64,000 nt of DNA from a bacterium (GTDB taxonomy: Bacteria; Margulisbacteria; WOR-1; O2-12-FULL-45-9; XYB2-FULL-48-7). Below are positions 44,028-64,000 of this stretch, piece after piece (positions within the stretch are counted from its first letter, which is position 1; each line of letters opens with the position of its first letter). The notes below the pieces were generated by a model. It saw nothing but the letters and a program-made list of their open reading frames with translations, was not told where the DNA came from and did no database searches. Where the stretch lies: assembly GCA_043812655.1 (NCBI GenBank), contig JBDRLW010000046.1, positions 8,452-72,451 on the forward strand, read 5' to 3'. A program made the position numbers and the translations under genes.

Positions 44028-44126
44028 TAATGAAAAATGACCTAATGTAAAATGAAAAATGAAGGTTAGAATTATTAGATAAAAAATACCTACATTTTTC
44101 ATTAAGTCATTTTTAATTTTTCATTA
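44028..44126. repeat. Inverted pair of AAATGAA-type heptamer arrays in groES leader
   Basis: AATG recurs at 44029/36/44/51/58; reverse complement of 44088-44126 closely resembles 44028-44066. Confidence 0.75.
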
Positions 44127-44150
44127 TAAAAGAAGGGGGTGAAGAAGGGT

Positions 44151-44447
44151 ATGGTAAGCAAAAAGTTGACTCCAATTGGTGACCGGGCAGTGGTGAAGCC
44201 GGAGCCGGAGGAAATCAAAACAAAGTCTGGGATCGTGCTGCCGGATTCAGCCAAAGAAAAACCGTCCGAAGGGACAGTGGTCGCGGTCGGATCTGGACGC
44301 GTCCTGGATAATGGACAAAAAGTTTCACTCGAAGTTAAGATCGGTGACAAGGTCATCTATAGTAAATACGGTGGGACAGAAGTTAAGATCGATGGTGAAG
44401 AATACATTATCTTAGCGGAACGGGATATTTTAGCAATTAGAGGATAA
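44151..44447 (+). CDS. groES: Co-chaperonin GroES
   Basis: [31 protein letters not shown]. Confidence 0.97.
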
Positions 44448-44461
44448 GGAGGTGAACTAAA

Positions 44462-46102
44462 ATGGCAGCAAAAGAAATGATGTTTGGCGATGAGGCCTGG
44501 AGGAAGCTCGAAAAGGGCGTTTCCAAAGTGGCCAAAGCAGTGATGGTGACCTTAGGCCCACGCGGTCGCAACGTGGTCCTCGAAAAGAAATGGGGTTCAC
44601 CGACAATAACGAATGACGGCGTGACGATCGCCAAGGAAATAGACCTAGAAGATCCATATGAAAATATGGGCGCGCAGCTGTTAAAAGAAGTTGCGAGCAA
44701 GACCAACGACATCGCGGGTGACGGGACTACTACCGCGACCGTTTTAGGTCACATTATATTTAAGGAAGGGTTAAAGAACGTTGTGTCCGGCGTCAATCCG
44801 ATGGCGCTAAAGCGCGGCATCCAATCCGCGGTCGAAACGGCCATCGCCGAGCTGAAAAAGCAAAGCCGGCCAGTTGAGACCAAGGAAGCGATCGCCCAGG
44901 TAGCTTCTATCTCCGCTAACAATGACATGGAGATCGGCAACCTGATCGCTGACGCGATGGAAAAAGTCGGTAAAGACGGGGTTATCACCGTTGAAGAGTC
45001 GAAAGGGATCGAGACTACCTTGGAAGTCGTGGAAGGGATGCAGTTTGATAAAGGGTATGCTTCTCCTTACATGGTAACAGATCGTGATCGGATGGAATGC
45101 GTCTTAGAAGACTGCTTCATGCTGATCACCGATAAAAAGATCAGCGCGGTCAAGGACCTGCTTCCCGCGCTTGAAAAAGTCGTCCAAGCGGGCAAGCCGC
45201 TATTGATTTTAGCCGATGAGATCGAAGGCGAAGCTTTAGCCACTTTAGTGGTCAATAAGCTGCGCGGCACGATCAATGCTGTTGCCGTTAAAGCTCCTGG
45301 TTTTGGCGATCGGCGCAAAGCAATGCTTGATGACATCGCGATCTTGACCGGCGGCGAGGTTATTTCCGAAGAAAAGGGTTTAACCTTGGAGAATGTTGAA
45401 GAAGCCTGGTTCGGTAAAGCAAAGAAAGTGATCGTCCGCAAGGAAAACACCACGATCATTGAAGGAGCCGGGACTGCTAAGGCGGTTAAAGACCGGATCG
45501 GCCAGATCAAGAAAGAGATCGACCTTTCTGATTCTTCTTATGATAAGGAGAAATTACAAGAGAGATTGGCCAAACTTTCTGGCGGTGTCGCGGTCATTAA
45601 AGCTGGCGCGGCGACCGAAACTGAGCTCAAAGAAAAGAAACACCGGATCGAAGATGCTTTATCAGCTACCCGTGCGGCAGTTGAAGAAGGGATCATCTCC
45701 GGCGGCGGTTCCGCTTTTATCCATATCCTACCAGCGTTGGCCAAACTTTTTGCCGGTCTCTCTGGCGATGAAAAAGTTGGCGCGGCGATCGTGACCAAGT
45801 CACTAGAGGAACCTCTAAGACAGATCGCGAACAATGCCGGCTGGGAAGGGTCTGTAGTTGTTGAACGGGTTAAGAAAGAAAAATCTGGCATCGGTTTTGA
45901 TGCGCAGAAATTTGATTTCGTTGACATGTTCAAAGCCGGGATCGTTGATCCGCTTAAGGTGACCCGTTCTGCCTTGCAGAATGCGGCCTCCATTGCCTCT
46001 ATGCTATTAACAACTGAAGTCTTGGTAGCAGAAAAGCCTGAAGAAGAAAAGGCCAAAATGCCGCCAATGCCTCCAGGTGGCGGGTATGGGGACATGATGT
46101 AA
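44462..46102 (+). CDS. groEL: Chaperonin GroEL
   Basis: [31 protein letters not shown]-like tail. Confidence 0.98.
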
Positions 46103-46110
46103 TTGGGTTT

Positions 46111-46129
46111 ACCCGCCGCGCAGGCGGGT
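46111..46129. repeat. Short GC-rich hairpin after groEL
   Basis: ACCCGCC-GCGCA-GGCGGGT; no U-tract, so REP-like rather than a clear terminator. Confidence 0.45.
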
Positions 46130-46157
46130 TGACAAATACAGCGACCAGCTGTAAAAT
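46129..46157 (+). promoter_or_regulatory. sigma70-type promoter of nusA-infB operon
   Basis: TTGACA, 17 nt, TAAAAT. Confidence 0.8.
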
Positions 46158-46167
46158 AAGTTCAAGT

Positions 46168-46197
46168 CGCAAAAGTGGGGTTTCTCCCACTTTTGCG
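46168..46197 (+). promoter_or_regulatory. Leader hairpin of nusA operon (rimP-leader-like attenuator)
   Basis: 12-bp stem CGCAAAAGTGGG / CCCACTTTTGCG; AGTGGG..CCCACT hairpins are typical upstream of rimP-nusA-infB. Confidence 0.65.
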
Positions 46198-46227
46198 CTT
46201 ATATGGGGTTTAGCGTGGAGGATTATT

Positions 46228-47337
46228 ATGAAAATTGAACATTTTAATGAAATGCTTGAGGAAATCCAGCGGGAACGGGGGATATCAAAAGATGGCCTGG
46301 TTTCCGCGATCAAAGCCTCTCTTTTATCGGCGGCGAAGAAGCGGTTTAAAGAAGAAGACCAGCTGGAATGCCGGATTTCCGATGATGGGGAAGTGAAAAT
46401 TTATCTTTTGGCTGAAGAAGGCGAAAAAGATGTTACTCCAGATGATTTTGGACGTTTTGCCGCCCAAACAGCAAAGCAGGTAATTATCCAACGGTTGCGT
46501 GAAGCGGAAAAAGAGGAATCATTCGAAGAATATTCAAAAAAAGCGGGAGAAGTTGTAACCGGGATCGTCCAACGCCGCGAGTTTGGCGGTTACCTGGTTA
46601 ATTTAGGCCGCTTAGAGACGATCTTACCGATATCGGAGCAGATCCCGGGGGAAATCCTGCGGGAAAGGGACCGGGTTAAATTTTATCTGGTCGAGACGAA
46701 AAGGACGCCAAAGGGACCAATGGCGCTCATTTCCAGATCGCATCCCAACTTAATTAAAAAACTTTTTGAAATGGAAATCCCGGAAATTAAAGAAGGCATT
46801 ATTGAAATTAAAGGGATCGTCAGGGAAGCGGGGAAAAGAAGCAAAGTAGCGATCTCTTCCAATGATCCTAACGTTGGGGCGGTTGGGACGTGTGTCGGCC
46901 ATATGGGGCAGAGGATCCAGAATATTATCCGCGAAATGGGGCCGGAGCGGATCGACATTGTGGAATGGAGCGACAACCCTAAAACCTTTATTAGCAATGC
47001 CTTAAGCCCGGCCAAAGTCCAAAAAATTGAATTAAATGAAGAGGAAAAAATCGCTAAGGTCTCGGTTTCCGATAAAGACCTTTCTCTAGCCATCGGAAAA
47101 GAGGGCCAGAATGTCCGCTTGGCGGTAAAACTTACAGGGTGGAAGATCGATCTTGGCTCCGAAGCGAAACCAGCCGAAAGTGAAGAAAAAAAATCAAATC
47201 TTAAAGTCCACGAATTAGCCAAGGAACTCGATCTGACCAGCAGCGAGCTGATCGCTAAGCTTCGGGAGATGGGTTTCCAGGTTAAGGCGGCCAATTCGAC
47301 CGTACCGGAAGAAGCAGTCAAACAACTGCGGGGGTAA
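46228..47337 (+). CDS. nusA: Transcription factor NusA with C-terminal IF2-N-like domain
   Basis: FGRFAAQTAKQVIIQ, S1 and KH domains, SLAIGKEGQNVRLA; SD GGAGG before ATG 46228; tail KVHELAKELDLTSSELI. Confidence 0.95.
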   Translation: MKIEHFNEMLEEIQRERGISKDGLVSAIKASLLSAAKKRFKEEDQLECRISDDGEVKIYLLAEEGEKDVTPDDFGRFAAQTAKQVIIQRLREAEKEESFEEYSKKAGEVVTGIVQRREFGGYLVNLGRLETILPISEQIPGEILRERDRVKFYLVETKRTPKGPMALISRSHPNLIKKLFEMEIPEIKEGIIEIKGIVREAGKRSKVAISSNDPNVGAVGTCVGHMGQRIQNIIREMGPERIDIVEWSDNPKTFISNALSPAKVQKIELNEEEKIAKVSVSDKDLSLAIGKEGQNVRLAVKLTGWKIDLGSEAKPAESEEKKSNLKVHELAKELDLTSSELIAKLREMGFQVKAANSTVPEEAVKQLRG

Positions 47338-47338
47338 A

Positions 47339-49318
47339 ATGGGTAAAATAAAAGTCGGTGATTTAGCAAAAGAGCTAGGCGTTGCCAACAAAGATCTATT
47401 GGCCGCCTTAAAAGATCTCGGCGTCGCCGCTAAAACTTCGGCTTCCTCGATCGATGAAGAATCCGCTAAAGTTGTAACCGAGCTCCTAAAGCCAAAAGCT
47501 AAAATTGAAACACCTAAACCTGCGCCTATTCCTGAACCTATACCTGTTCCTGTGCCTACGCCTATTCCCGTTTCAACCGGTAAAGAATTAACGATCGAAA
47601 CAGAAGATATTTCGGTCAAAGAACTATCCGAAAAACTTAAAGCTAAAGCTTCGGAAGTGATCAAAGAGCTAATGAAAAAGGGGATCATGGTGACGATGAA
47701 CCAGCGGGTGGCGGCAGAAGTGGCCAAAGAAGTTGCCAGCGCGCTTGGCAAAGAATTAGTTATTAAAGAAAAAGTTGCCCAAGCCTCAAAAGGCTTAATG
47801 AAGCCGATGACCGGGTCGCTTCGTCCGCCGATCGTGACCGTCATGGGCCACGTTGACCATGGAAAAACAAAATTACTTGACGCGATCAGATCGACTAAAG
47901 TGGCCGAAAGCGAAGCGGGGGGCATTACCCAGCATATCGGTGCTTACCAAGTTATGGTGCAAGATCGAAAGGTCACATTTTTAGATACGCCAGGCCACGA
48001 AGCTTTTACTGCTTTGCGAGCCAGGGGTGCAAAGGTTACCGATATTGTTATTTTGGTCGTCGCCGCTGATGACGGAGTGAAACCGCAAACGATCGAAGCG
48101 GTCAACCACGCTAAAGCGGCCGGTGTACCAATTATTGTCGCGATCAATAAGATCGATAAGCCAGAAGCCAATCCTGATCGGGTCAAAACCCAGTTAGCTG
48201 AGCTTGGCCTGCAAGCCGAAGACTGGGGCGGAAAGACCGTGATGGTCCCTGTTTCGGCTAAAGCCAAGACGGGAATTGAAGAGCTCCTCGAAATGGTCCT
48301 TCTAGTCGCCGACCTTGGTGAATTAAAGGCCGATGCTAATGCTAACCCGCAAGGGATAGTGATCGAATCGCGGCTTGATAAAGGGCGCGGGCCGGTAGCT
48401 AGCGTACTCGTGCAAAATGGAACTTTAAAAATTGGGGATGTCTTTACTTGCGGCGCGACTTTTGGCAAAGTCAGAGCCTTACTTAGCGATAAAAATGCCC
48501 GGCTGGAAAAAGCGCCGCCATCAATGCCGGTCGAAGTTTTAGGTTTTATGTCTGTGCCAAACCCTGGAGATGTTTTAACCGTAGTACCAACTGAAAAAGA
48601 AGCCAGAACACTTGCTGAAAACAATAAAATTGCCGATGGGCATACCCAGCGCGGGAAGGTCGTTTCGCTTGAAGATTTCTCAAAACACGTTAAAGAAGGC
48701 GAAGGGAAAGACCTAAATCTTGTCCTCAAAGCTGATGTCCAAGGTTCGTTGAGCGCGATCGTCCAATCATTGACCGACCTAAAAATGGGGAACATTGGCG
48801 TTCATATTATCCACAGTGCTGTCGGTTTGATCAATGAATCTGACATTATGCTGGCCAAAGCTTCTGGCGCCATTTTAGTTGGGTTTAATGTTGGCTATGA
48901 AGGCGGGGCAGAGTCAAAAGGTTCTGACGAAGGAGTTGAGGTCAGGTTATATAATGTTATCTACAAATTAATCGATGACGTTAAACTGGCAATGGAAGGT
49001 TTGCTTGAGCCGGAATTTGAAGAAGTTATCACCGGCCATGCCGAAGTCCGCCAGATGTTCTCTTTCTCCAAGGTTGGCTCGATCGCCGGTTGTTTTGTCA
49101 CCGATGGTAAAATGACAAGAGGGACCGGACTAAGGATCTTAAGGGATAAGAAGAAGATCTACGAGGGCAAACTTGAATCGCTCAAACGATTTAAAGAAGA
49201 CGTAAAAAGCGTGGAGCAAAATTATGAATGCGGTATCGCTATCCCCGGTTATTCTGATTTCCAGAAAGGGGATATTATCGAGAACTTTGAAGTCAGAGAG
49301 AAAAAACGCCAAGGATGA
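47339..49318 (+). CDS. infB: Translation initiation factor IF-2
   Basis: MGHVDHGKT, DTPGHEAF, NKID; two IF2-N repeats with a Pro-rich linker. Confidence 0.98.
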   Translation: MGKIKVGDLAKELGVANKDLLAALKDLGVAAKTSASSIDEESAKVVTELLKPKAKIETPKPAPIPEPIPVPVPTPIPVSTGKELTIETEDISVKELSEKLKAKASEVIKELMKKGIMVTMNQRVAAEVAKEVASALGKELVIKEKVAQASKGLMKPMTGSLRPPIVTVMGHVDHGKTKLLDAIRSTKVAESEAGGITQHIGAYQVMVQDRKVTFLDTPGHEAFTALRARGAKVTDIVILVVAADDGVKPQTIEAVNHAKAAGVPIIVAINKIDKPEANPDRVKTQLAELGLQAEDWGGKTVMVPVSAKAKTGIEELLEMVLLVADLGELKADANANPQGIVIESRLDKGRGPVASVLVQNGTLKIGDVFTCGATFGKVRALLSDKNARLEKAPPSMPVEVLGFMSVPNPGDVLTVVPTEKEARTLAENNKIADGHTQRGKVVSLEDFSKHVKEGEGKDLNLVLKADVQGSLSAIVQSLTDLKMGNIGVHIIHSAVGLINESDIMLAKASGAILVGFNVGYEGGAESKGSDEGVEVRLYNVIYKLIDDVKLAMEGLLEPEFEEVITGHAEVRQMFSFSKVGSIAGCFVTDGKMTRGTGLRILRDKKKIYEGKLESLKRFKEDVKSVEQNYECGIAIPGYSDFQKGDIIENFEVREKKRQG

Positions 49319-49695
49319 GCAGGCCAGAAAAAGCCGCCGAATTAATTAGGGCCGAAGTCAGCAAGATATTAAGGGCTAAAGTGTCGGACCCCCGGGTTGG
49401 TTTTGTCAGTATTACTTCAGTAGATGTTTCCCCAGACCTTGAAAACGCCGCGATCTATGTTAGTATCTTTGGCGGGGAAAAAGATAAAGTGGCCGCGATG
49501 GCCGGCCTTGATTCCGCGACAAGGTTTATCCGCGGCGAACTTGGCCGCCGGATAGAATTCCGCCAAGTTCCCCAGATCCGTTTTGTGCGGGATGATTCGC
49601 TGGAGAAGGGGAGTAATGTCCTAGGGATCATAAACAAGCTACATAAAGATGAAAAAACAGTTCGACCAAGTAAAAGAGCTCCTAAAAAAAGCTAA
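49315..49695 (+). CDS. rbfA: Ribosome-binding factor A
   Basis: DPRVGFVSITSVDVSPDL, VPQIRFVRDDS; follows infB. Confidence 0.95.
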   Translation: MSRPEKAAELIRAEVSKILRAKVSDPRVGFVSITSVDVSPDLENAAIYVSIFGGEKDKVAAMAGLDSATRFIRGELGRRIEFRQVPQIRFVRDDSLEKGSNVLGIINKLHKDEKTVRPSKRAPKKS

Positions 49696-50605
49696 GACAG
49701 TTATAATCGCGGCGCATGTTGACCCCGATGGCGACGCGATCGGCTCAATGCTTGCACTGGCCGGCATTTTAGAAAAACTGGGGAAATCGGTTATTTGTTA
49801 TTCGGCCGATAACTTCCCGAAAGTTTATCGATTCCTGCCTGGCGCGGACACGATCAAAAGAGAGATCCTCAATCAACAGCATTTTAACATGGCGTTCGTC
49901 CTTGATTCTTCCAACCTCGGTCGAGTTGGTGACAAGGTCGATCTCACCGAAATCACTAAAGTGATCGTTAATATTGACCATCATCCAGATAATACTAAAT
50001 TTGGAGAAGTTAATATTGTTTCCAACGCTTCTTCAACTGGTGAATTGGTCTATGAACTGGCAAAAGCTTTGCAAGTAAAGATCGATAAGCCGATCGCCGA
50101 AGCGCTTTACACGGCGATCATTACTGATACCGGTAACTTCCGCTATGAAAACACAAGCGTCAAAACTTTTGAAATAGCGGCTGAACTTTTAAAGGCGGGA
50201 GTGGATACACATACGTTAACCGGGCAAATTTATGACCGCAAAACCATCGCTTCGATCAAGATCTTAGGATTAGCACTTTCGAATTTAAGGTTTTCGCCGG
50301 ACAAAAAAATAGTTTGGACCGGCGTCAATGACCAGATGCTTAAAGAGACCGGGGCCATGGGCGAAGATCTAGTGGGAATTATCGATCATTTAAGGGCGAT
50401 CGATGGGATCGAAGTAGCTGTATTGTTCCGGCGGAAAGAAAATAAGTGCAAGGTCAATTTCCGCTCCAAAGACAAAGCCAATGTTTCGCTTATTGCGAAA
50501 AGCTTGGGCGGTGGTGGGCATGTTAAAGCAGCAGGGGCGACGATCGAAGGCGATTGTCACGACGTGGTAGAGCGCGTTATTACCGCGATCCAAAAACATC
50601 TTTAA
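49649..50605 (+). CDS. nrnA: DHH/DHHA1 oligoribonuclease / PAP phosphatase
   Basis: HVDPDGDAIGS, IDHH, TDTGNF, GGGGHVKAAG. Confidence 0.9.
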   Translation: MKKQFDQVKELLKKAKTVIIAAHVDPDGDAIGSMLALAGILEKLGKSVICYSADNFPKVYRFLPGADTIKREILNQQHFNMAFVLDSSNLGRVGDKVDLTEITKVIVNIDHHPDNTKFGEVNIVSNASSTGELVYELAKALQVKIDKPIAEALYTAIITDTGNFRYENTSVKTFEIAAELLKAGVDTHTLTGQIYDRKTIASIKILGLALSNLRFSPDKKIVWTGVNDQMLKETGAMGEDLVGIIDHLRAIDGIEVAVLFRRKENKCKVNFRSKDKANVSLIAKSLGGGGHVKAAGATIEGDCHDVVERVITAIQKHL

Positions 50606-50609
50606 CCTC

Positions 50610-51338
50610 ATGGACGGAATCATTATTGTTAATAAACCCCAAGGCTGGACATCATTTGATGTTGTCGCCAAGATCCGCAATTTAACCAGGGTCAAAAAAG
50701 TTGGCCATTCCGGGACGCTTGACCCAATGGCGACGGGAGTTCTCCCTGTTTTCCTTGGCAAAGCGACAAAATCGATAAACCAATACTTGAATGGTGATAA
50801 GGGGTACGATGGGGAGATGGCCATCGGCGTCAGGACTGATTCTGGAGATGCCGATGGTCAAATTCTAAATCCTAAATCCGAAATCCTAAACAATACCGAA
50901 ATCTCAATATCAAAATCCAAAATAGAAGAAATATTTAAGAAATATGTTGGTGAAATTGAACAGGTGCCGCCGATGTTTTCGGCGGTGAAGATCAACGGCC
51001 AGAGGCTTTACGAACTAGCGAGAAAAGGGATCGAAGTTGAACGGAAAGCAAGAAAAATAACCATTTACGCATTACGCATTACGCATTACGATTCGCCCGA
51101 CGCTACCCATCCACGCCTGACGTTTTCCGTCCTCTGCTCCAAAGGCACTTACATCCGCCAATTGGTAATGGATATTGGTGACGATCTGGGGTGTGGCGCA
51201 CATTTATCAAAGCTGGTCAGGACTTATGCGCATCCATTCCATCTCTCGCAAGCGATCGATATGGAAACGATCGTTAACCTGGCTAAGATCGGGAAATTAG
51301 AGACAATTGTTTTACCATATGAAACTAGTAACAGCTGA
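50610..51338 (+). CDS. truB: tRNA pseudouridine(55) synthase (no C-terminal PUA domain)
   Basis: KVGHSGTLDPMATGVL, QVPPMFSAVK, CSKGTYIR. Confidence 0.95.
   Translation: MDGIIIVNKPQGWTSFDVVAKIRNLTRVKKVGHSGTLDPMATGVLPVFLGKATKSINQYLNGDKGYDGEMAIGVRTDSGDADGQILNPKSEILNNTEISISKSKIEEIFKKYVGEIEQVPPMFSAVKINGQRLYELARKGIEVERKARKITIYALRITHYDSPDATHPRLTFSVLCSKGTYIRQLVMDIGDDLGCGAHLSKLVRTYAHPFHLSQAIDMETIVNLAKIGKLETIVLPYETSNS
50860..50923. repeat. In-frame AAATCCN heptamer tract within truB
   Basis: AAATTCT AAATCCT AAATCCG AAATCCT ... AAATCTC AATATCA AAATCCA. Confidence 0.8.
51064..51091. repeat. In-frame ATTACGC heptamer tract within truB
   Basis: TTTACGC ATTACGC ATTACGC ATTACGA. Confidence 0.85.
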
Positions 51339-51963
51339 CGAAATGGCGGAACTAGACCGCCATGCTATAAAAGACCTCAAAATCCCTTCTTTAACACTCA
51401 TGGAAAACGCGGGGAGAGCTGTGGCGGACGAAGTATGCAAAATTCCGGAAATCCATAAGATCCTTGTCGTTTGTGGAAAAGGTAACAATGGTGGAGATGG
51501 TTTTGTTGCGGCCAGATATTTGGCCGAAAGAGGTTATGAGGTTGAAGTTGTTCTAATCGGTAATCGGGATGAAGTAAAGCATGATCCGAAGGTAAATATT
51601 GAGCAGCTAAAAAAGTTAGAGGCCAACAACCCCACACTGAAGTGTGGGGAATATACCCCAGACTTTAGTCTGGGGTTGCAAGCCAAAGATATTATTGTGG
51701 ATTCCTTATTCGGTATCGGCCTAAAAACTGAATTAAAACCGCCTTACATTGACATCATTAATCAATTAAATTCGACCGGCAAACCGATCATTGCGGTCGA
51801 TGTTCCTTCCGGCCTAGACGCGACAACTGGCAAAGTCTTAGGCGCGGCGATCAAAGCGACCAAAACTGTCACTTTCGCGGCGGCTAAAACGGGGTTTTAT
51901 AAAGAAGAGGGACCGGCGCATACTGGGGAAGTGGTTGTTGTAGACATTGGGATTCCATTGTAG
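51319..51963 (+). CDS. nnrE: NAD(P)H-hydrate epimerase (YjeF-N domain only)
   Basis: LMENAG, CGKGNNGGDG, VDSLFGIG, AVDVPSG, DIGIP. Confidence 0.92.
   Translation: MKLVTADEMAELDRHAIKDLKIPSLTLMENAGRAVADEVCKIPEIHKILVVCGKGNNGGDGFVAARYLAERGYEVEVVLIGNRDEVKHDPKVNIEQLKKLEANNPTLKCGEYTPDFSLGLQAKDIIVDSLFGIGLKTELKPPYIDIINQLNSTGKPIIAVDVPSGLDATTGKVLGAAIKATKTVTFAAAKTGFYKEEGPAHTGEVVVVDIGIPL
51627..51678. repeat. REP-like palindrome doublet inside nnrE
   Basis: CAACCCCACAC-TGAA-GTGTGGGG and inverted ACCCCAGAC-TTTA-GTCTGGGGTTG. Confidence 0.85.
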
Positions 51964-54070
<2,107 letters not shown>

Positions 54071-54835
54071 ATGAAAGAAAAACTAAAACTGATTAAAAAC
54101 TTACTAGAAAAGCGGAGCGCCAGGCGGAAAGAGAAGGCCTTTGTCATTGAAGGGCCGCATTTGGTGGAAGAAGCGGGGGAGCGGGTAAAATTTATTGTTT
54201 ACAGTGAGAAGTTGCCAATCGTTAAAACGCTGGAAGAAAATGGGACGCCAGCTTATAAAATATCAAAAGAACAATATGCCGAAATCTCTCGAGTGGAGAC
54301 TCCGCAAGGTGTTTTGGCTGTAGTCAGAGAGTTTGGCTATTCGTTTAGAGATGTATTGAAAGAGGACAAAAGCTTAATCGTTTTTTGCCTTGGGGTACAG
54401 GATCCTGGCAATCTGGGTACAATTATCCGTTCAGCCGATGCGTTTGGGGCAACTGGAATCATCCTCTCTAAAGGAACAGTCGACCTGTATAATCCTAAAG
54501 TTATCCGCTCATCGATGGGTTCGCTTTTTCATCTCCCGATCGTTACGACCGAGGACGAAAAAGAAACCATTATGTATTTAAAGGAAAAAGGTGTTAAAAT
54601 TATTGCAACTGACGCGAAAGCCAGTAAGATCTGTTCGGCCGTAGATCTAAGTGGGCCGGTTGCGATAATTTTAGGGAATGAAGGGGAAGGGCTCTCTACT
54701 GAAATTACCGAAATGGTTGCGGAGTCAGTTAGAATTCCGATGGTTGGGCAAGCTGAATCATTAAATGTTGGGATGTCGGCGTCCGTTTTGTTATACGAAG
54801 TTTTGAGGCAGGGGGATAATGCAGGAAAAAATTAA
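54071..54835 (+). CDS. TrmH/SpoU-family RNA methyltransferase
   Basis: QDPGNLGTIIRSA, GNEGEG, IPM...ESLNV SPOUT motifs. Confidence 0.92.
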   Translation: MKEKLKLIKNLLEKRSARRKEKAFVIEGPHLVEEAGERVKFIVYSEKLPIVKTLEENGTPAYKISKEQYAEISRVETPQGVLAVVREFGYSFRDVLKEDKSLIVFCLGVQDPGNLGTIIRSADAFGATGIILSKGTVDLYNPKVIRSSMGSLFHLPIVTTEDEKETIMYLKEKGVKIIATDAKASKICSAVDLSGPVAIILGNEGEGLSTEITEMVAESVRIPMVGQAESLNVGMSASVLLYEVLRQGDNAGKN

Positions 54836-57814: not shown

Positions 57815-57827
57815 AACAAAATAACGA

Positions 57828-57926
57828 GGAAACCGCGAAGTTTATTCGCCGGTTTCCGAGTTGCTGAATGGTTTCGTAACCAGCGACTAAACCCCGATGT
57901 AGGAATCGGGGCAAGCGTCGCGGTTA
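57828..57926. repeat. Inverted REP-like doublet with nested CCCCGAT hairpin
   Basis: GGAAACCGCGAA-GTTTA-TTCGC-C-GGTTTCC and AACC-A-GCGAC[TAAACCCCGATGTAGGAATCGGGGCAAGC]GTCGCGGTT. Confidence 0.8.
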
Positions 57927-57943
57927 ATTAAGGAGGTTTTGAT

Positions 57944-58288
57944 ATGAAAAAATGTTTAATTGTTGCTTTAATTGCTTTTACTGCATTGATTTTTGCTAAG
58001 GTCTCTTTTGCTCAAGAAGCGCCGATTGATCAGCCAAAACCTGGCCAAGAAATGGCTCAACCTCAAAGACCGGGACCCGGTGGTCAACCCTGGTTGGCAC
58101 AATATATTGGAAGTAAGGTTAAATTTGTTTCGATAGCTAGAGCTTATGCATGGTATGAGTTTAAGGGAGAATTACAAAAAGTTGAAATATCGGGTATAGT
58201 TGTTAAGGATATAACAGGTTGGCCAAACGGTAAAGAAGCTTTTTTCCCTTTTGGAACAATAGTATTCATTCAACCGGTTTCGGATTAG
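57944..58288 (+). CDS. Hypothetical secreted protein (signal peptide, P/Q linker, small beta domain)
   Basis: SD AAGGAGGT; MKK plus hydrophobic stretch and SFA/QE cleavage site. Confidence 0.75.
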   Translation: MKKCLIVALIAFTALIFAKVSFAQEAPIDQPKPGQEMAQPQRPGPGGQPWLAQYIGSKVKFVSIARAYAWYEFKGELQKVEISGIVVKDITGWPNGKEAFFPFGTIVFIQPVSD

Positions 58289-58306
58289 TTGAGGATAATA
58301 AACAAC

Positions 58307-58334
58307 AAATCCCCACACTTAAGTGTGGGGATTT
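58307..58334. repeat. Perfect 28-bp palindrome, same family as the nnrE element; may double as terminator
   Basis: AAATCCCCACACTTAAGTGTGGGGATTT. Confidence 0.85.
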
Positions 58335-58365
58335 AATTATATACTGTTGGAGGTAAGATTGCTGT

Positions 58366-58491
58366 ATGGATAAAAAACAAAAGAGTTGGCAAAAACGGTT
58401 TGAAGTATTTTTGAAAAAAGCTGATAAAAAGATGGTAAGGATTTCGTACGAAGAAATATCAAGTGAAGTTACTAAAACTAGATGTGAATAG
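58366..58491 (+). CDS. Small 41-aa ORF, possible antitoxin remnant
   Basis: SD GGAGGT at 58349-54; MDKKQKSWQKRFEVFLKKADKKMVRISYEEISSEVTKTRCE. Confidence 0.4.
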   Translation: MDKKQKSWQKRFEVFLKKADKKMVRISYEEISSEVTKTRCE

Positions 58492-58523
58492 TTATTAGTT
58501 GAATGCTATAATAACTATTAATC

Positions 58524-58763
58524 ATGCCGACTTTATTTGTAATTAATGGCTATAGGTTTTTCTTCTTTAGTAACGAGGGAAATGAACCTAAACATGTTCA
58601 TATTGAAAAAGCGGGAAAATACGCAAAGTTCTGGCTTGATCCAATTATTTTAGCCGTAAATTACGGTTTTAATAGCCCCGAATTGAAATTAATCGAAGAA
58701 TTAGTCGAAAATAAAAAGAAAGAAATTGAGGTGAAATGGAATGAATATTTCAGTATCGGTTGA
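58524..58763 (+). CDS. DUF4160-family protein (putative toxin-antitoxin component)
   Basis: MPTLFVINGYRFFFFSNEGNEPKHVHI...AKFWL...WNEYF pattern. Confidence 0.85.
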   Translation: MPTLFVINGYRFFFFSNEGNEPKHVHIEKAGKYAKFWLDPIILAVNYGFNSPELKLIEELVENKKKEIEVKWNEYFSIG

Positions 58764-58980
58764 CGCCAAAGCTTCTGGCCTGAAAATTACCAATGAAGAT
58801 TTATCTGTTGATCTGATCGATGGGAGGGAAGTGAAAGTCCCTTTGGTTTGGTTCCCAAAGCTTTTACGGGCAACTCCCGCACAAAGGAACAATTATCGCC
58901 TAATTGGCAATGGCATCGGTATCCATTGGATTGATTTAGATGAGGATCTGTCAGTTGAGGGTTTATTAGCTGTTAAGTAA
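58741..58980 (+). CDS. DUF2442-family protein (putative toxin-antitoxin component)
   Basis: VDLIDGREVKVPLVWFPKL...GIHWIDLDEDLSVEGLL pattern; overlaps DUF4160 gene. Confidence 0.88.
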   Translation: MNISVSVDAKASGLKITNEDLSVDLIDGREVKVPLVWFPKLLRATPAQRNNYRLIGNGIGIHWIDLDEDLSVEGLLAVK

Positions 58981-58983
58981 ATC

Positions 58984-61557
58984 ATGCCCGACTTAACCCC
59001 GATGGCCCGGCAATACCAGGAGATCAAAGCCTCCCAAAAGGACGCGATCCTCTTTTTCCGCTTGGGTGATTTCTACGAAATGTTTTATGAGGATGCTGAA
59101 CTCGCCTCTCGCGAACTCGATCTAACCCTTACCGGCCGTGGGAAAGACGAAAACCGGATGCCGATGTGCGGCGTCCCATACCATGCTGCCGAAAGCTATA
59201 TTGCCAAGTTGATCGAAAAAGGGTACAAGGTGGCGATTTGCGAGCAGGTGGAAGACCCGAAACTGGCCAAAGGTTTAGTTAGAAGAGAAGTGATCAGAAT
59301 CATCACCCCCGGAACCGTAATTGAATCATCCATGCTGTTTGATAGGACTAATAACTATTTAATGGCGATTAATCAAGAAAAGGGTAAGTACGGATTAGCC
59401 TTTGTTGAGGCAACCACTGGTGAATTTAAGCTGTCTGATTTTGATTCGGTAGAAAAGATGCATGATGAAGTAACAAGAATTAATCCCTCAGAAATTATCG
59501 TTTCTGATCTGCTTCCCGAGGAACCGCGACGTTTAGTCGCAGGTTCCAGACCAGTTTCATTATTCAAGGACATCTATGACAACGAGACGGCAATTGAGAA
59601 GCTAAAAGAACATTTTGCTGTTCAGTCGCTCGAATCGTTTGGTTTAGATGGGAATGAAGTCGCCCTGGGTGCCGCGGCCGCGATCCTTGATTATCTCAAA
59701 GAGACGCAAAAGACCACCCTCGGTCACATTAATAACTTAAAGCATTATCAGACGGAAGAATTTATGTTTATTGATGCGACAACGAGACGGAATTTAGAAC
59801 TGACCGCCACCGCCCGGGACAAATCATTTAGAGGCAGCCTCCTTTGGGTTCTTGATCGGACAAAGACATCGATGGGGAGTCGATTATTGCGACAATGGTT
59901 GCTACAACCATTATTAGATGTAACCATAATTAATAAGCGCTTAGACGCGGTTGAAGAATTATTTGGTGATGCAATGCTGCGGTCGGAATTAAGCGAGGGC
60001 TTAAAGAAAGTCTTTGATATCGAACGGTTAACCGGTAAAGTTGCGACTCAAGCGGCAAATGCCAGGGATTTGGTGGCATTAAAAGAATCGTTAGAGCAGT
60101 TGCCGAGGATCAGGAATGTTATAAAAGAATGTAAGGCTGGATTATTAAAACAAATGGAACCAGAGAATAAATTCTCGGTTCCATCAAGAGATCCTGCAGA
60201 ATTAATTCCGCAGGATCAAGACACAATAACCGCGAATTCATTCGCTGGTTTCGAAAATCAAATCATAAACCTCATATCCAAATCCATCATCGACGAACCG
60301 CCATTTGTGATCAAAGAAGGAGGGCTGATCAAGCAAGGTTTTAATGCCGAACTTGATGAGCTCAAGAAAGCGACCAGCGGCGGGAAGCAATGGATCGCCG
60401 AGTTAGAAGTCTCGGAAAGAAAACGGTCAGGGATCAAATCGCTTAAGATCGGCTTTACGAAAGTTTTTGGTTATTACATCGAGGTGACGAATTCCAACCT
60501 TAATGAAGTGCCGCCAGATTATATCCGCAAACAGACGCTGGTTAACGCCGAGCGATTCATCACCCCCGAGTTAAAGGAGAAGGAAGCCCTGATCTTGAAC
60601 GCCGATGAACGGATGAAAGAGCTGGAATATCAAATTCTTTGTGATGTTCGGACGCAAGTTGCGGGTTTTACCAAGCAATTGCAGGCCGTTGCTTTCGCCT
60701 TAGCTCAAACGGATGTACTTTTATCCCTGGCCGAGGTCGCGGTTGAGAATAAGTATTGCCGCCCTATACTCCAGGCTCCGAACTCCCAACTCCGAACTAT
60801 TCAAGGCCGTCACCCGGTGGTAGAAAAAACTCTTAATGAATTCCAGTTTGTCCCTAATGATGTCGAATTAAATGATGAGCAACGATTCCTTTTAATAACT
60901 GGACCCAATATGGGTGGAAAATCAACTTATATGAGACAAGTCGCGCTTATCTGCCTCATGGCGCAGATCGGTTCATTTGTCCCGGCCAACAAAGCGGAAC
61001 TTTCATTAATAGATAGGATCTTTACCAGGATCGGAGCAATGGATGATATTTATTCCGGGCAATCGACCTTTATGGTAGAGATGACGGAGACGGCTAACAT
61101 TATTAATAATGCCACCGAAAAGAGTCTGATCATATTGGATGAGATCGGGCGGGGGACGTCGACTTTTGACGGGATGTCGATCGCGGCAGCGGTCGCCGAA
61201 TATATCCACACCAAGATCCGTGCCAAAACGCTTTTTGCCACTCATTATCACGAGATCACCCAGCTAGCTGATAAACATAAGGGGATGGCCAATGTTAATG
61301 TCCTGGTCAAAGAAGCTGGGGATAAAATAACTTTTTTACATCAAGTTGTTCCCGGCCCAGCTGACCGCTCTTATGGCATCCAAGTCGCCAAGTTAGCGGG
61401 TTTGCCAAATGAAGTAGTAAAAAGAGCAAAGGAAGTTTATAATACTTTGGAGATGGTTGAAAATGATTTGGGGAAAGAAGAGAAGAACAAGGCCGTTAAT
61501 TTAAAAGCCAGTAAAAGAGCTGTTTATAATAATAGAGACCAGGTTAGTTTATTTTAG
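58984..61557 (+). CDS. mutS: DNA mismatch repair protein MutS
   Basis: FRLGDFYEMF, CGVPYHA, TGPNMGGKST, DEIGRGTST, SYGIQVA; C-terminal QVSLF clamp-binding-like motif. Confidence 0.98.
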   Translation: MPDLTPMARQYQEIKASQKDAILFFRLGDFYEMFYEDAELASRELDLTLTGRGKDENRMPMCGVPYHAAESYIAKLIEKGYKVAICEQVEDPKLAKGLVRREVIRIITPGTVIESSMLFDRTNNYLMAINQEKGKYGLAFVEATTGEFKLSDFDSVEKMHDEVTRINPSEIIVSDLLPEEPRRLVAGSRPVSLFKDIYDNETAIEKLKEHFAVQSLESFGLDGNEVALGAAAAILDYLKETQKTTLGHINNLKHYQTEEFMFIDATTRRNLELTATARDKSFRGSLLWVLDRTKTSMGSRLLRQWLLQPLLDVTIINKRLDAVEELFGDAMLRSELSEGLKKVFDIERLTGKVATQAANARDLVALKESLEQLPRIRNVIKECKAGLLKQMEPENKFSVPSRDPAELIPQDQDTITANSFAGFENQIINLISKSIIDEPPFVIKEGGLIKQGFNAELDELKKATSGGKQWIAELEVSERKRSGIKSLKIGFTKVFGYYIEVTNSNLNEVPPDYIRKQTLVNAERFITPELKEKEALILNADERMKELEYQILCDVRTQVAGFTKQLQAVAFALAQTDVLLSLAEVAVENKYCRPILQAPNSQLRTIQGRHPVVEKTLNEFQFVPNDVELNDEQRFLLITGPNMGGKSTYMRQVALICLMAQIGSFVPANKAELSLIDRIFTRIGAMDDIYSGQSTFMVEMTETANIINNATEKSLIILDEIGRGTSTFDGMSIAAAVAEYIHTKIRAKTLFATHYHEITQLADKHKGMANVNVLVKEAGDKITFLHQVVPGPADRSYGIQVAKLAGLPNEVVKRAKEVYNTLEMVENDLGKEEKNKAVNLKASKRAVYNNRDQVSLF
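59520..59547. repeat. REP-like palindrome in frame inside mutS
   Basis: GGAACC-GCGAC-GTTTA-GTCGC-A-GGTTCC; same family as 57828-57926. Confidence 0.85.
60154..60250. repeat. Cluster of three REP-like palindromes in frame inside mutS
   Basis: ATGGAACC-A-GAGAA-TAAA-TTCTC-GGTTCCAT; GATCCTGCAGAATTAATTCCGCAGGATC; AACC-GCGAA-TTCA-TTCGC-T-GGTT. Confidence 0.85.
60769..60796. repeat. In-frame CTCCGAA heptamer tract in mutS
   Basis: CTCCAGG CTCCGAA CTCCCAA CTCCGAA. Confidence 0.75.
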
Positions 61558-61566
61558 GAGGATAAA

Positions 61567-61980
61567 ATGAAAAGAGGTATATTGGTTGGTTTGTTGGTTA
61601 GTGTGTTAGTGGGAAATGCGTTCGCGGCGGTAACGGAGATCGTGGGCGGGGTGAGGGATGGAGCTGCCTTAGGCATACAGCTTGAAAGCAGCGTAGCGAA
61701 AAACTTAACCATCCGCGGCGGGATCGAATTTGACTCTGGCAAACAGCCTTTCATCGGTTTTCTCGGTTTAAAATTTCCTTTAACTAGCATCGGCCGGATG
61801 CCTCTCGCGCTAGGCTTGGGGGCCGTTGGATATTTTGGCAATAATAAGACCGAGGCCGGAGTTTCTCTCTCTTTTATTTTCAACCGTTTCCTGGATATTA
61901 ATCCGCTCTTTTTGGAGCTGGGCGTCGACGCGGCTGGTACTGGTAAATTACTCGCCCAATTAGGCTACAAGATATACTGA
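61567..61980 (+). CDS. Hypothetical protein, probable small outer-membrane beta-barrel
   Basis: Signal peptide (AFA), alternating Gly/hydrophobic strands, C-terminal LGYKIY. Confidence 0.55.
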   Translation: MKRGILVGLLVSVLVGNAFAAVTEIVGGVRDGAALGIQLESSVAKNLTIRGGIEFDSGKQPFIGFLGLKFPLTSIGRMPLALGLGAVGYFGNNKTEAGVSLSFIFNRFLDINPLFLELGVDAAGTGKLLAQLGYKIY

Positions 61981-61987
61981 AGATATA

Positions 61988-62938
61988 ATGTTCAAATGGC
62001 TGGCTGACAAAATAACATATGATCTTTTACGTTTGACCCCAGGCTCGCGAGTGGGCGAAAGCGTTAACTTCTTCTTTTACGACCTGCCTAAGATCTACGT
62101 GATGCTGCTGACGATCATGTTCGTTATCGCCGTTTTACGCAGTTTTATCCCGCCGCGAAAGATCCGCCAGATTTTAAGCCATCGCCACGCATTTATTGGT
62201 AATATTCTAGCCGCTGGTTTTGGCGTCTTAACCCCATTTTGCACCTGTTCCGCCATTCCACTCTTTATCGGGATGCTCGAATCTGGCGTGCCGCTGGGAG
62301 TAACGATGTCTTTCCTGATCTCGTCGCCAACGGTCAATGAGATCGCTTTAGTCTTGTTATGGGGCCTGTTTGGCTGGAAAATAGCGCTAACCTATGTGGC
62401 CAGCGGATTAACGATCGCGGTCGTTTGCGGCTTTATCATCGGCCGCTTAAAAATGGAAAAATATCTTGAGGAGATAGTTTTTAAAACAAAGACAGTAGGG
62501 GAGACAATTGAAAAACAACCGAATTGGCAAGAGAGATTTACTTCCGCTTACGAATATACAATTGCTGTTTTTAGATCGGTCTGGTTCTATGTTCTGTTTG
62601 GCGTCGGGTTAGGTTCATTGATCCACGGTTACGTCCCGGTAGGCTTGGTCATAAAATACGCGGGGACAAATAATCCGCTGGCGGTGATCATCGCTGTCAT
62701 CTTAGGCGTGCCGCTTTACGCTAATTGCGCCGGCGCTTTGCCTGTTGTCCAAGCGATCCTGGAAAAAGGCTTGCCGCTTGGGACTAGCCTGGCGTTCATG
62801 ATGTCTGTTACCGCCTTGTCATTCCCGGAATTCATTATTTTGCGCAAGGTGATGAAGCCGCAGCTCCTCTTTACTTTTATCGGGATGGTAGCGACCGGAA
62901 TTATCTTGATCGGCTACTTTTTTAATCTCGTCTTTTAA
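61988..62938 (+). CDS. DUF318/ArsP-like permease
   Basis: PFCTCSAIP, FLISSP, GVPLY, TALSFPE; polytopic. Confidence 0.85.
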   Translation: MFKWLADKITYDLLRLTPGSRVGESVNFFFYDLPKIYVMLLTIMFVIAVLRSFIPPRKIRQILSHRHAFIGNILAAGFGVLTPFCTCSAIPLFIGMLESGVPLGVTMSFLISSPTVNEIALVLLWGLFGWKIALTYVASGLTIAVVCGFIIGRLKMEKYLEEIVFKTKTVGETIEKQPNWQERFTSAYEYTIAVFRSVWFYVLFGVGLGSLIHGYVPVGLVIKYAGTNNPLAVIIAVILGVPLYANCAGALPVVQAILEKGLPLGTSLAFMMSVTALSFPEFIILRKVMKPQLLFTFIGMVATGIILIGYFFNLVF

Positions 62939-63510
62939 CTATATAAAGAAATATGCGGTTTTTTGATCAGCGCGAATTCCCCGGGTTTTAAGTTCCCTAA
63001 TTTGATCGGACCTATTTTTACTCTGATCAAACGCAAGCAGGGGAGGCCAACCGCGGCTGTCATTTTCCTGACTTGCCGGTTGCGGCCTTCATGAATGGTG
63101 ATTTCCAGCCACGAAGTTGGGACTGACCTCCTAAAACGGATCGGTTTTGTTCTTGGCCAGATCAGTAGGTTATCAGGCAGTTGTTTAACCCTGGCCGGCA
63201 AAGTTTTTTTCCCTTCAATGACAACGCCTTTTCCCAAGTTTGAGATCGCTTCTTTTGCAGGCAGCCCTTCGACTTGCGCCCAATAAGTCTTTTCAACTTT
63301 ATACCTAGGATTGCTCATCTGCTGGTTCAATTTGCCGTCATCGGTTAAAAAGAGGAGCCCCTCGCTGTCATAATCAAGCCGGCCAACGGGATAGATGCCC
63401 TGAACATCAATATAATCTTTAAGGGTTTGGCGACCGCTCGAATCAGTAAACTGGCAGAGGACTTCAAAAGGCTTATTGAAAATTAAATATTTAAACTGCT
63501 CTTTGTTCAT
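62935..63510 (-). CDS. rluE: RsuA-family pseudouridine synthase, RluE-like
   Basis: FNKPFEVLCQF, VGRLDYDSEGLL, EGRNRQVRKM. Confidence 0.85.
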   Translation of the reverse strand: MNKEQFKYLIFNKPFEVLCQFTDSSGRQTLKDYIDVQGIYPVGRLDYDSEGLLFLTDDGKLNQQMSNPRYKVEKTYWAQVEGLPAKEAISNLGKGVVIEGKKTLPARVKQLPDNLLIWPRTKPIRFRRSVPTSWLEITIHEGRNRQVRKMTAAVGLPCLRLIRVKIGPIKLGNLKPGEFALIKKPHISLYS

Positions 63511-63576
63511 TTTTGTAATTCATACCATTATACAACTTTTCATTCTGTTATAATATATGCCAGGAGGTAAATAATT

Positions 63577-63891
63577 ATGGCAAAAGAAATTTCTGACGCG
63601 GAATTCAAGAAAGAGGTTGAAGACAACCAAGGCGTGGTCTTTGTTGATTTTTGGGCGCCATGGTGCGGCCCGTGCCGGATGATGGCTCCGGTCTTTGAAA
63701 AAATGGCGACAAAATATCCGACGGTCAAGTTTTGCAAGGTTAATACGACCGAGCATATTAAGAAAGCCAGCGAGCTGGGAGTTTCCGGCATTCCCTGCAT
63801 TATTGTTTTTAAGAATGGAAAAGAAGTCGATCGTTTGGTTGGTTTTAGGTCAGAACCGGAGTTTGAAAAGGACGTTAAAAAACATGCTTAA
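63577..63891 (+). CDS. trxA: Thioredoxin
   Basis: WAPWCGPC; SD GGAGG; TGt-TATAAT upstream. Confidence 0.95.
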   Translation: MAKEISDAEFKKEVEDNQGVVFVDFWAPWCGPCRMMAPVFEKMATKYPTVKFCKVNTTEHIKKASELGVSGIPCIIVFKNGKEVDRLVGFRSEPEFEKDVKKHA

Positions 63892-64000
63892 GAAAAATAT
63901 TTTAATAATTATTTTACTGGTCGTGGCCTTATGTTCTATTGTCCATTGCCCGGCCTTTGGCATGGGGGAGAAACAGGAAGTTTATCCAAATTTAAAGGAG
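63884..64000 (+). CDS. Secreted protein, 5' portion only (runs off window)
   Basis: MLKKNILIIILLVVALCSIVHCPAFGMGEK..., overlaps trxA stop, open to window end. Confidence 0.5.
   Translation, partial: MLKKNILIIILLVVALCSIVHCPAFGMGEKQEVYPNLKE

Follow-up and report, generated by a model that had tools for sequence, protein, structure and literature searches.

The question raised by the stretch of DNA considered here is how short hairpins and tandem heptamers have come to lie between and inside housekeeping genes whose reading frames are open. The window, as the whole analysed stretch is called, is 64,000 nucleotides long (C46:8452-72451, on contig JBDRLW010000046.1) and belongs to a bacterial draft genome of 1.62 Mb in 46 contigs (93 % complete, 2.6 % contamination). 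Its part from 44 to 64 kb is a run of housekeeping genes, comprising groES/EL, nusA, infB, rbfA, a DHH phosphoesterase gene, truB, nnrE (YjeF_N), ligA, spoU, pheS/T, mutS and genes for a permease, a pseudouridine synthase and thioredoxin, all with open frames and full Pfam domains. A sequence-only reading of the window had proposed that a trans-acting process disperses repeats into variable protein loops, and had noted that they are always in frame. The answer favoured here, with a little more confidence than doubt, is that a clade of order rank has been colonised by three kinds of dispersed DNA of about 25 to 35 nt, and that each kind makes up, in addition, the termini of a cassette around a small gene. 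These are the palindromes designated REP1 (AACC-GCGA..TCGC-GGTT), hairpin elements of the CCCCTCTCC/GGGTGAGGG type, and blocks of tandem heptamers, and the genes that they flank encode Y1 transposases, DUF559 nucleases and four-helix-bundle (4HB) proteins, respectively. About 30 relatives with genomes of 1.1-1.9 Mb, from two families within one order and including one single-contig genome, were sampled for comparison.

Repeat census of the genome

Tandem arrays were called with Tandem Repeats Finder (TRF), and a fifth-order Markov genome and a codon-shuffled genome served as nulls. Genome-wide, TRF reported 247 period-7 arrays (50 in the Markov null) and 72 period-14 arrays (10 in the Markov null), and period-8 arrays were about twofold enriched (114 against 55). 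Perfect tandem repeats of at least three copies occurred 15 times at period 7, and no other period between 5 and 15 had more than one; none of period 7 was present in the Markov null or in the codon-shuffled null, the latter being the comparison that the sequence-only reading had named as decisive for its claim of enrichment. Perfect hairpins with a stem of at least 10 bp numbered 162 (20 in the null), REP1 was found 61 times (3 in the null; the strict pattern gave 71 matches and its reversed pattern one), and CC[CT]TCTC and CCCCA[CG]AC hairpins had 48 and nine genome copies, with none in the null for either. Families of hairpins and heptamers in and between the housekeeping genes, as reported in the sequence-only reading, were thereby borne out, both by enrichment and by TRF and direct reading at the named positions. 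From its list of families, REP1, CCCCA[CG]AC, CC[CT]TCTC and the heptamers stand. CCCCGAT was rejected as a family in this genome, having one perfect copy that is nested in a REP1-like hairpin (the same inner stem is also present in the mutS REP of relative L029), and ATTGTCC/ATTGCCC is a doubtful member consisting of two imperfect copies (63931-63951, plus strand) that TRF did not report.

The 247 period-7 arrays comprise 108 distinct canonical units, the top ones recurring 5-17 times. Among the array lengths, those of 15-19 nt look like a chance component, and a sharp mode stands out at 30-35 nt (4.3-5 units), in genic and intergenic arrays alike; arrays longer than 36 nt are nearly absent, and two cases of 57-58 nt are double blocks. 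Because of the sharp mode, the heptamers are regarded as discrete blocks of about 33 nt and not as open-ended microsatellites. Within the window, TRF rows of period 7 or 14 numbered none in 1-27 kb, two weak ones in 27-44 kb and eight (six loci) in 44-64 kb, and perfect 8-bp hairpins numbered one, one and seven in the same parts. The sparseness that the sequence-only reading had remarked on in the energy block at 27-44 kb (H+-PPase, a V/A-ATPase operon and Rnf genes) is therefore real. Genome-wide, 133 of the 247 period-7 arrays are deep in confident open reading frames (ORFs), spread over 95 host genes, 71 are near ORF ends and 43 are intergenic. For the 71 strict REP1 copies the corresponding figures are 21 (about 30 %), 14 and 36.

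Genes flanked by the repeats

No cognate enzyme gene is encoded in the window, in agreement with the sequence-only reading, and three of the gene classes that it had suggested might be flanked by the repeats, namely RAYT/IS200 transposases, DUF559 nucleases and 4HB genes, were found elsewhere in the genome. The fourth, reverse transcriptase, was not: PF00078 (RVT_1) gave no match in the 93 %-complete genome, and a diversity-generating retroelement (DGR) was rejected for this reason.

Nine 4HB genes (PF05635/TIGR02436, Avd-like) are over the cut-off, their products scoring 60-123 bits on TIGR02436 against a cut-off of 24. All nine examined lie outside the window and between protein genes. By eye, all nine are bracketed by short tandem arrays lying inverted to each other (six of period 7, one of period 8, one of period 10 and one irregular at 6-7 nt); each cassette has its own repeat unit, and five of the nine loci have inverted flanks only. 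Under a fixed TRF criterion, arrays stand on both sides of seven of the nine genes and on one side of the other two, compared with 29 of the 1560 called genes (1.9 %). The arrays pair around the 4HB ORF in the predicted fold, in both the minimum-free-energy and the centroid structure (z -4.62). Inverted-array hairpins without an ORF also exist, at 44027-44127 of the window and on contigs C36 and C32. Among arrays away from 4HB genes, 105 of 194 units are within one mismatch of a unit flanking a 4HB gene; with letter-shuffled units (200 shuffles) the average was 42.8 and the highest count 57.

All 31 genomes of the order carry 4HB genes, from 1 to 15 per genome. Of the best 4HB loci of 29 relatives, one locus per relative, 18 have two-sided arrays, nine one-sided arrays and two none, the periods being 7 and 8, and the top-scoring 4HB subfamily in the relatives is flanked by octamer arrays. 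Fifteen 4HB loci in distant phyla gave a similar picture (both sides 10, one side four, neither one). Four pairs of 4HB proteins with 70-75 % identity, from different genera, share 13-30 flanking 7-mers counted over both flanks, compared with about five for pairs below 50 % identity. At a junction of convergent genes, a cassette some 490 nt long is present in genome G010 and consists of AAAGCTT arrays, a 4HB ORF and further arrays; the junction is empty and without any array in congeneric G013 and G014, so that the arrays travel with the cassette. In congeneric G004 a 94-nt CCCTCTCC/GGGTGAGGG element occupies this junction, and two element classes therefore use one site.

Three PF01797 (Y1_Tnp) genes are over the cut-off (90.3, 80.2 and 44.7 bits), none of them in the window. 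Those on contigs C3 and C5 have REP1 on both sides in inverted orientation and that on C10 has another hairpin pair; the translation of the C3 ORF shows an HVH triad and a C-terminal Y. The two REP1-flanked proteins score 86.9 and 81.3 bits on NF033573 (IS200/IS605 TnpA, cut-off 55). REP1 lies within about 110 nt of the Y1 gene in 10 of 13 loci from this genome and its relatives, and many REP1 copies form inverted doublets, about 40-70 nt apart and in opposite orientation. Direct reading found no GTAG at either foot of REP1, and CGTC occurs inside some stems and never at an end. Of the 31 genomes of the order, 29 have REP1 (range 0-77 copies) and 21 have Y1_Tnp; REP1 reaches a median of 12 copies where Y1_Tnp is present and of 4 where it is absent. 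Several relatives have a Y1 transposase gene directly upstream of mutS, or between or adjoining ligA and truB, which is the syntenic block of the window (G003:C11:34480-34833, G016:C85:69-434, G019:C16:21335-21679, G023:C60:7523-7870, G013:C25:22295-22642, G019:C14:37897-38244 and G004:C1:234737-235081).

The DUF559 genes over the cut-off (PF04480, a Vsr-like endonuclease) are small, stand alone and are located outside the window. One on contig C8 is flanked by CCCCTCTC hairpins and one on C3 by variant hairpins. Hairpins of the CCCCTCTCC type form the flanks of DUF559 genes, and the family is dispersed as CCCCTCTCC/GGGTGAGGG elements. Such hairpins commonly accompany DUF559 genes elsewhere.

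Host genes and reading frame

A Pfam domain was found in each of 13 REP1 host ORFs scanned, a set that excluded mutS (already verified by Pfam) and one giant gene of 5071 aa. The hosts include DNA polymerase I (PolA), an AddA-like helicase-nuclease, MurG, QueA, TsaD, MiaA, lipoyl synthase (LipA) and LarC, and REP1 mostly lies within the Pfam domain envelope of its host. Likewise, a Pfam domain is present in every one of 20 heptamer hosts picked randomly out of 89, among them TrpA, NadA, TrmD, chorismate synthase (AroC), MetRS, GuaA and IscS. REP1 is translated in many frames and both orientations, giving peptides as dissimilar as EPRRSVAGS, NREVHSLVS, GTANLFAGS and KPATKRRGF. Two copies of REP1 lie in the giant ORF (G000:C9:12613-27825), together with at least seven heptamer blocks.

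Along a perfect heptamer repeat, translation passes through all three frames, and any stop codon in the cyclic unit therefore kills the gene. For intragenic arrays of at least 20 nt the consensus unit is free of stops in 80 of 108 cases in the sense direction and in 55 of 108 in the antisense direction, and for intergenic arrays in 13 of 34. Constant in-frame placement, which the sequence-only reading had remarked on, is thus a survivorship filter and no property of the dispersal process. In one relative, the mutS match (L042, G029:C127, from a 71 %-complete draft) holds a single in-frame TAA.

Insertion and replacement at orthologous sites

Intragenic tracts of the window are given below on the plus strand, except the palindromes in nnrE, to which, as to the intergenic elements, no strand is assigned. 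The mutS gene (58984-61557) carries three loops with elements. A REP1 copy at 59520-59547 in domain II is in frame and encodes (E)EPRRLVAGS; the loop measures 17 aa, compared with a median of 16.5 within the order and of 22 in 38 outgroup MutS proteins (40 of 80 outgroup loci, L112-L151, were used for the alignment). Nine of the 26 orthologues that cover this loop have an in-frame REP1 there, six in the EEPRRLVAGS frame, one in the GNREVYSQVS frame and two as doublets; two more have REP1 remnants, and others have unrelated hairpins or heptamers. The 28-nt core of this REP1 is identical at 26-28 of 28 positions in six genomes, and flanking third codon positions are only 0.32-0.49 identical, so either the element is being renewed or its DNA sequence is under strong constraint. 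Loop 2 holds a compound insert (60156-60250) composed of REP1 (60156-60182), a GATCCTGC…GCAGGATC hairpin (60190-60217) and a second REP1 (60228-60250). It adds about 26 aa (52 aa against 26). REP1 variants occupy loop 2 in nine of 28 orthologues (of which one has CCCCGAT as its inner stem and another a nested hairpin) and the CCCCACAC hairpin does so in five of 28; two congeneric species differ here, L029 having REP1 and L031 CCCCACAC. In relatives without an element the loop reads …AAGGAAC…TTCC…, similar to the feet of REP1. Loop 3 contains (CTCCGAA)x3.3 (60776-60798, TRF), which encodes APNSQLRT, and its 13 aa compare with an outgroup median of 12.

In nnrE (51307-51963) two 20-nt hairpins, CCCCACACtgaaGTGTGGGG (51630-51649) and CCCCAGACtttaGTCTGGGG (51656-51675), encode NPTLKCGEYTPDFSLG and belong to the CCCCACAC/CCCCAGAC family, i.e. 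CCCCA[CG]AC. REP1 takes their place in four of 22 orthologues (once reversed and once as a doublet), and the loop is about 16-21 aa long whether an element is present or not.

The truB gene (50610-51338) has two heptamer sites detected by TRF. Two adjoining blocks of AAATCCT/AAAATCC (50860-50923) encode ILNPKSEILNNTEISISKSKI in loop 1, and the TAA stop that a perfect AAATCCT repeat would produce reads GAA instead. This loop exceeds that of E. coli TruB by 7 aa, with pLDDT below 50 at aa 86-96, and by eye it is heptamer-coded in 17 of 20 orthologues, with the units AAATCCN, AAACTTC, AATGACG/C and AAATGAC. The second site, a perfect (TTACGCA)x3.7 (51065-51090) encoding IYALRITHY, shows no indel relative to VYELLFIRH of E. 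coli and lies in a predicted strand (E148-160; block pLDDT 91). The same periodicity, imperfect, exists in relatives of family f1 and is lacking in f2 at equal length. In two public sequencing runs of one biofilm-metagenome sample, contig ends pile up at the AAATCCT block at 50860 (26 in X1 and eight in X2), and the sequence past each end is unrelated; the AAATCCT unit is therefore common in other organisms of that sample.

In ligA (52003-53958), (CCGAACT)x2.3, which continues imperfectly (52136-52151, TRF), lies on a conserved motif whose length is unchanged in 24 of 24 orthologues. Together with the TTACGCA block, which codes a confidently predicted core beta-strand of TruB, it contradicts the confinement to variable loops inferred in the sequence-only reading. 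The linker between the HhH and BRCT domains contains (AGGGGCC/AGGGTCC)x4.1 (53708-53736, TRF); 20 of the 22 other aligned orthologues are of equal length here and two are 2 aa longer, and many have other heptamer units at this place, which differ by genus. In trmD, one of the randomly drawn heptamer hosts, (ACGATTC)3.9 encodes SRFTIHDSR, which aligns to EDLDVTEQAR of a solved TrmD and is one residue shorter.

Five of six heptamer sites compared are length-neutral (-1 to +1 aa relative to orthologues or solved homologues), the exception being TruB loop 1, and the suspicion in the sequence-only reading that some tracts replace loops instead of adding to them was well placed. Elements thus insert in some cases and replace in others, and which of the two applies depends on the type of element.

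Proposed explanation and its alternatives

REP1 hairpins are most likely moved in trans, as single-stranded DNA, by the IS200/RAYT-like HUH-Y1 transposase whose gene they flank. The CCCCTCTCC/GGGTGAGGG hairpin elements would be the ends that bracket DUF559 (Vsr-like nuclease) genes, and the blocks of 4.3-5 heptamers the inverted ends of 4HB cassettes, which would pair into a long stem as in the intervening sequences (IVS) of rRNA genes. Many copies land in genes because about 95 % of the genome is coding, and those that survive would be in frame, free of stops, harmless to the fold and in tolerant stretches, the remainder being removed by selection. The REP hairpins would mainly insert into, or partly replace, hypervariable loops, where existing hairpins may attract further elements and so create hot spots. 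Heptamer blocks may derive from, or exchange with, the ends of 4HB cassettes and be written over some 33 nt of resident sequence that is partly similar, by short-patch conversion or templated replacement followed by homogenisation within the block. This pairing of proteins with repeats and this conversion mechanism are what the arrangement of genes and repeats points to, and a causal role of the 4HB protein or of DUF559 is suggested by association together with the one filled/empty site.

Several observations weigh against this explanation. The activity of the Y1, DUF559 and 4HB proteins is putative. Genes were predicted genome-wide with a rough caller made for this analysis (1560 genes), and Pfam verification covers the sampled hosts. 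On the RAYT model NF047646 the two REP1-flanked proteins reach 46.7 and 45.2 bits and the third Y1 protein 63.6, all below the cut-off of 80, and G002 has 40 REP1 copies with no Y1_Tnp found at 96 % completeness. Only 12 of the 247 period-7 rows are within 400 nt of a 4HB gene, and the abundant units AACTCCG/C, AAAAATG and AGGGTCC have no 4HB partner in the 93 %-complete assembly. A 4HB cassette inside an essential gene is impossible, so the intragenic blocks need a separate route. Two results in its favour are limited: the positive correlation between 4HB copy number and the density of arrays in housekeeping loci (rho 0.51, n=30) is drawn from 4-24 kb per genome and from related genomes that are not independent; and the contrast among ten genomes of distant phyla, in which a 4HB gene is present in four of five with a heptamer array near mutS (in these outgroups intergenic and not within the gene) and in one of five without, is small and based on hand-picked sets. 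Finally, the heptamer excess of many prokaryotes has been ascribed to polymerase slippage by Mrazek and colleagues, whose work is summarised in PMC4679880, where heptanucleotides are the commonest long class of simple sequence repeats (SSR).

That account, applied here, would have the blocks made locally by slippage or by a 7-nt polymerase bias and the 4HB genes merely sitting in repeat-rich spacers. The multitude of units (108 among 247 arrays), the few rows near 4HB genes and the finding that orthologous sites hold related but differing units, each homogeneous, as in concerted evolution in place, all suit it. It does not lead one to expect a sharp length mode at 30-35 nt with hardly anything longer, slippage by one unit would shift the frame within genes, and the same few unit families recur at unrelated loci, matching 4HB flanks 2.5 times above shuffled units. 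Inverted arrays around the 4HB ORF, array-free empty sites in G013 and G014, and two-sided flanks at seven of nine 4HB genes also speak against it, and slippage is judged unlikely. The order of events may instead be reversed, with mobile 4HB cassettes targeting arrays or hairpin loops that another process had laid down as landing pads. Inverted-array hairpins without an ORF (44027-44127, C36 and C32) and a separate unit for each cassette would fit such targeting, as would the position in helix loops of the rRNA intervening sequences of this ORF family (PMC4990558). Both empty orthologous sites are nevertheless devoid of any array, related 4HB proteins of different genera share flanking 7-mers (13-30 against about five), and insertion into one array would give direct flanks, in contrast to the five loci that are inverted only; the landing-pad account is considered quite improbable.

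It could also be argued that intragenic tracts persist on account of some benefit, be it as flexible linkers, as RNA hairpins with a regulatory role or as attenuators, and that their recurrence reflects selection for function. The mutS REP1 core, 93-100 % identical across two families with neighbouring synonymous sites near saturation, and the filling of the same loops in many genera are in keeping with this. REP1 is read into unrelated peptides in many frames and both orientations, however, element types swap within one loop even in one genus (REP1 in L029, CCCCACAC in L031), the hosts are functionally unrelated and many orthologues have no element at the site, so that usefulness is a very improbable cause. 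An artefact of assembly or binning, the repeats being chimeric joins in a metagenome-assembled genome (MAG), is scarcely credible: against the 46-contig state of the draft, its 2.6 % contamination and several repeat copies at contig ends stand intact host frames, complete domains and the recurrence of the same elements, loop for loop, in relatives whose genomes were assembled independently, the one-contig genome among them. Public reads were also consulted in four runs, each of which contained at most 0.17 of the sampled words; three of them gave low-depth, short, identical contigs with many foreign matches, and the joints listed there have short sides and stem from other organisms or from repeats. 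Short contigs with 0 differences, which may derive from the source sample, span the mutS REP1 and a heptamer block. In the three low-depth runs no indel or alternative allele of a tract was readable, a result without bearing on polymorphism.

Beyond the favoured explanation of three dispersed kinds of DNA, a bolder and improbable extension is that the array-bracketed, Avd-like 4HB gene is the autonomous form of a widespread and undescribed mobile element, whose product, pentameric in solved homologues, would recognise about five units and copy and replace about 33 nt of resident DNA with no change in length, essential genes included. A match of five 4HB subunits with five units is speculation only, since in other phyla the arrays next to 4HB genes can have 6-13 units.

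Relation to known elements

REP/REPIN elements with RAYT are reportedly the subject of Bertels & Rainey 2011. The elements described here resemble the REP/RAYT system in being short GC-rich hairpins present as singlets and inverted doublets in tens of copies, with a few-copy HUH-Y1 gene flanked by the dispersed hairpins, and in that some copies lie in frame within replication and repair genes. Intragenic REPs are known, often in repair genes, and their hosts in other species include Pol I, UvrD, DNA ligase and tRNA pseudouridine synthase (Di Nocera et al. 2013, PMC3733652). There are also differences: the flanked genes here score as IS200/IS605 TnpA and fall under the RAYT cut-off; about 30 % of REP1 is deep in genes, compared with mostly intergenic REPs in PMC3733652; and the same loops are hit repeatedly across the order in varied frames, orientations and element types. 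That source mentions Rickettsia palindromic elements (RPE) and, in the part available, ties them to no transposase. The likeness to RPEs is in behaviour only, with in-frame palindromes in housekeeping genes of a small genome and tolerated new peptides. Ogata et al. 2000 are said to have described them; RPE-1 is longer than the 20-30 nt elements seen here. The present elements also differ in having a candidate enzyme and in being accompanied by heptamer blocks that replace sequence.

Cyanobacterial short tandemly repeated repetitive (STRR) heptamers were reportedly described by Mazel et al. 1990. The heptamers of this genome share with heptanucleotide SSR and STRR sequences a period of 7 far above other periods, a limited set of units recurring genome-wide and, with the SSRs, some copies in ORFs that are limited by encoded stops. 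They are capped at about five units (about 35 nt) and not open-ended, they lie deep in genes (133 of 247) more than in intergenic DNA (43 of 247), unlike the mostly intergenic SSRs, and they often lie over conserved codons at unchanged length, with units common to the arrays that bracket 4HB genes. The TAACTGA repeats of Beggiatoaceae are likewise heptanucleotide repeats (PMC4679880).

The 23S rRNA IVS has the same ORF family enclosed by inverted repeats that form a long stem. In an IVS with an S23p ORF, variable-number tandem heptamers (GACAGAT) precede the ORF, a solved S23p homologue is a pentamer, and it has been suggested that the IVS is mobile (PMC4990558). The cassettes described here differ in being located between protein genes, as far as examined, and in having stems made of heptamer or octamer arrays, of which ORF-less and solo forms are dispersed, including within genes. 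The 4HB family also includes Avd of diversity-generating retroelements (PMC10053308, PMC3936711), from which the present system differs in having no reverse transcriptase. A literature search found no general link between PF05635/TIGR02436 genes and flanking heptamer arrays, the single IVS case apart (PMC4990558).

Intragenic REPs and an excess of heptamers were thus known before; new are the link between heptamers and 4HB cassettes and the length-neutral overwriting. The origin of STRR-type heptamers and of ORF-bearing rRNA IVS is unexplained in the literature consulted, and the 4HB link, which holds for the same kind of units in the order and in four other phyla and includes a filled/empty site, makes both testable. 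If true, an autonomous 4HB element would explain STRR heptamers across phyla, ORF-bearing rRNA IVS and the fast turnover of peptides in the order. Selfish DNA can rewrite stretches of 7-12 residues in core enzymes (TruB, TrmD, LigA, MutS, Pol I and MurG are examples), among them a beta-strand and a conserved motif, and loops serve repeatedly as landing sites over order-level divergence; nature has here tested how much change proteins tolerate, and new peptide sequence arises in the process. In this lineage such tracts will mislead the trimming of alignments, marker-based phylogenomics and quality control of MAGs.

Intergenic elements and other features of the window

The leader of groES contains the ORF-less hairpin at 44027-44127, built of an AATGAAA array (44029-44063) and a TTTTCAT-type array (44095-44125) and identified by TRF, sequence reading and RNA folding. 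Its predicted RNA fold has -26.4 kcal/mol (z -5.45), and none of 200 shuffles was as good. Upstream of groES, at 44001-44027, is an inverted repeat TTAGCACTC-N9-GAGTGCTAA, which matches the CIRCE/HrcA operator consensus, and the heptamer hairpin is positioned between this repeat and the groES start (44139).

The spacer between ligA and spoU is filled by a composite GC-rich element (53949 to about 54070) that overlaps the ligA stop codon and reaches the spoU start. It consists of a CCTTCTCC hairpin (53974-53994), a CCCTCTCC hairpin (54023-54043) and a terminal GGGTGAGGG, which stands directly before the spoU ATG and could act as a ribosome-binding site. The family of this element has 48-53 copies, 39 of 48 being intergenic. 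After pheT there is an intergenic REP1 hairpin, GGAAACCGCGAAgtttaTTCGCCGGTTTCC (57828-57857), and a REP1-like outer stem, AACCAGCGAC…GTCGCGGTT (57878-57925), with the CCCCGAT hairpin (57892-57911) nested in its loop. A CCCCACAC hairpin, a perfect palindrome of 14+14 nt (58307-58334, core 58311-58330), follows an ORF for a small secreted protein (57944-58288) that has no Pfam family. Upstream of mutS, two small ORFs of 80 aa each overlap within 58524-58980. The period-18/12 repeat in the N-terminal region of infB (47513-47568) is an ordinary repeat of codons in frame and does not belong to the heptamer phenomenon. The first part of the window (1-27000) has a G+C content of 0.37-0.44, below that of the rest, with no heptamer array and one perfect 8-bp hairpin, and may be a younger or foreign segment.

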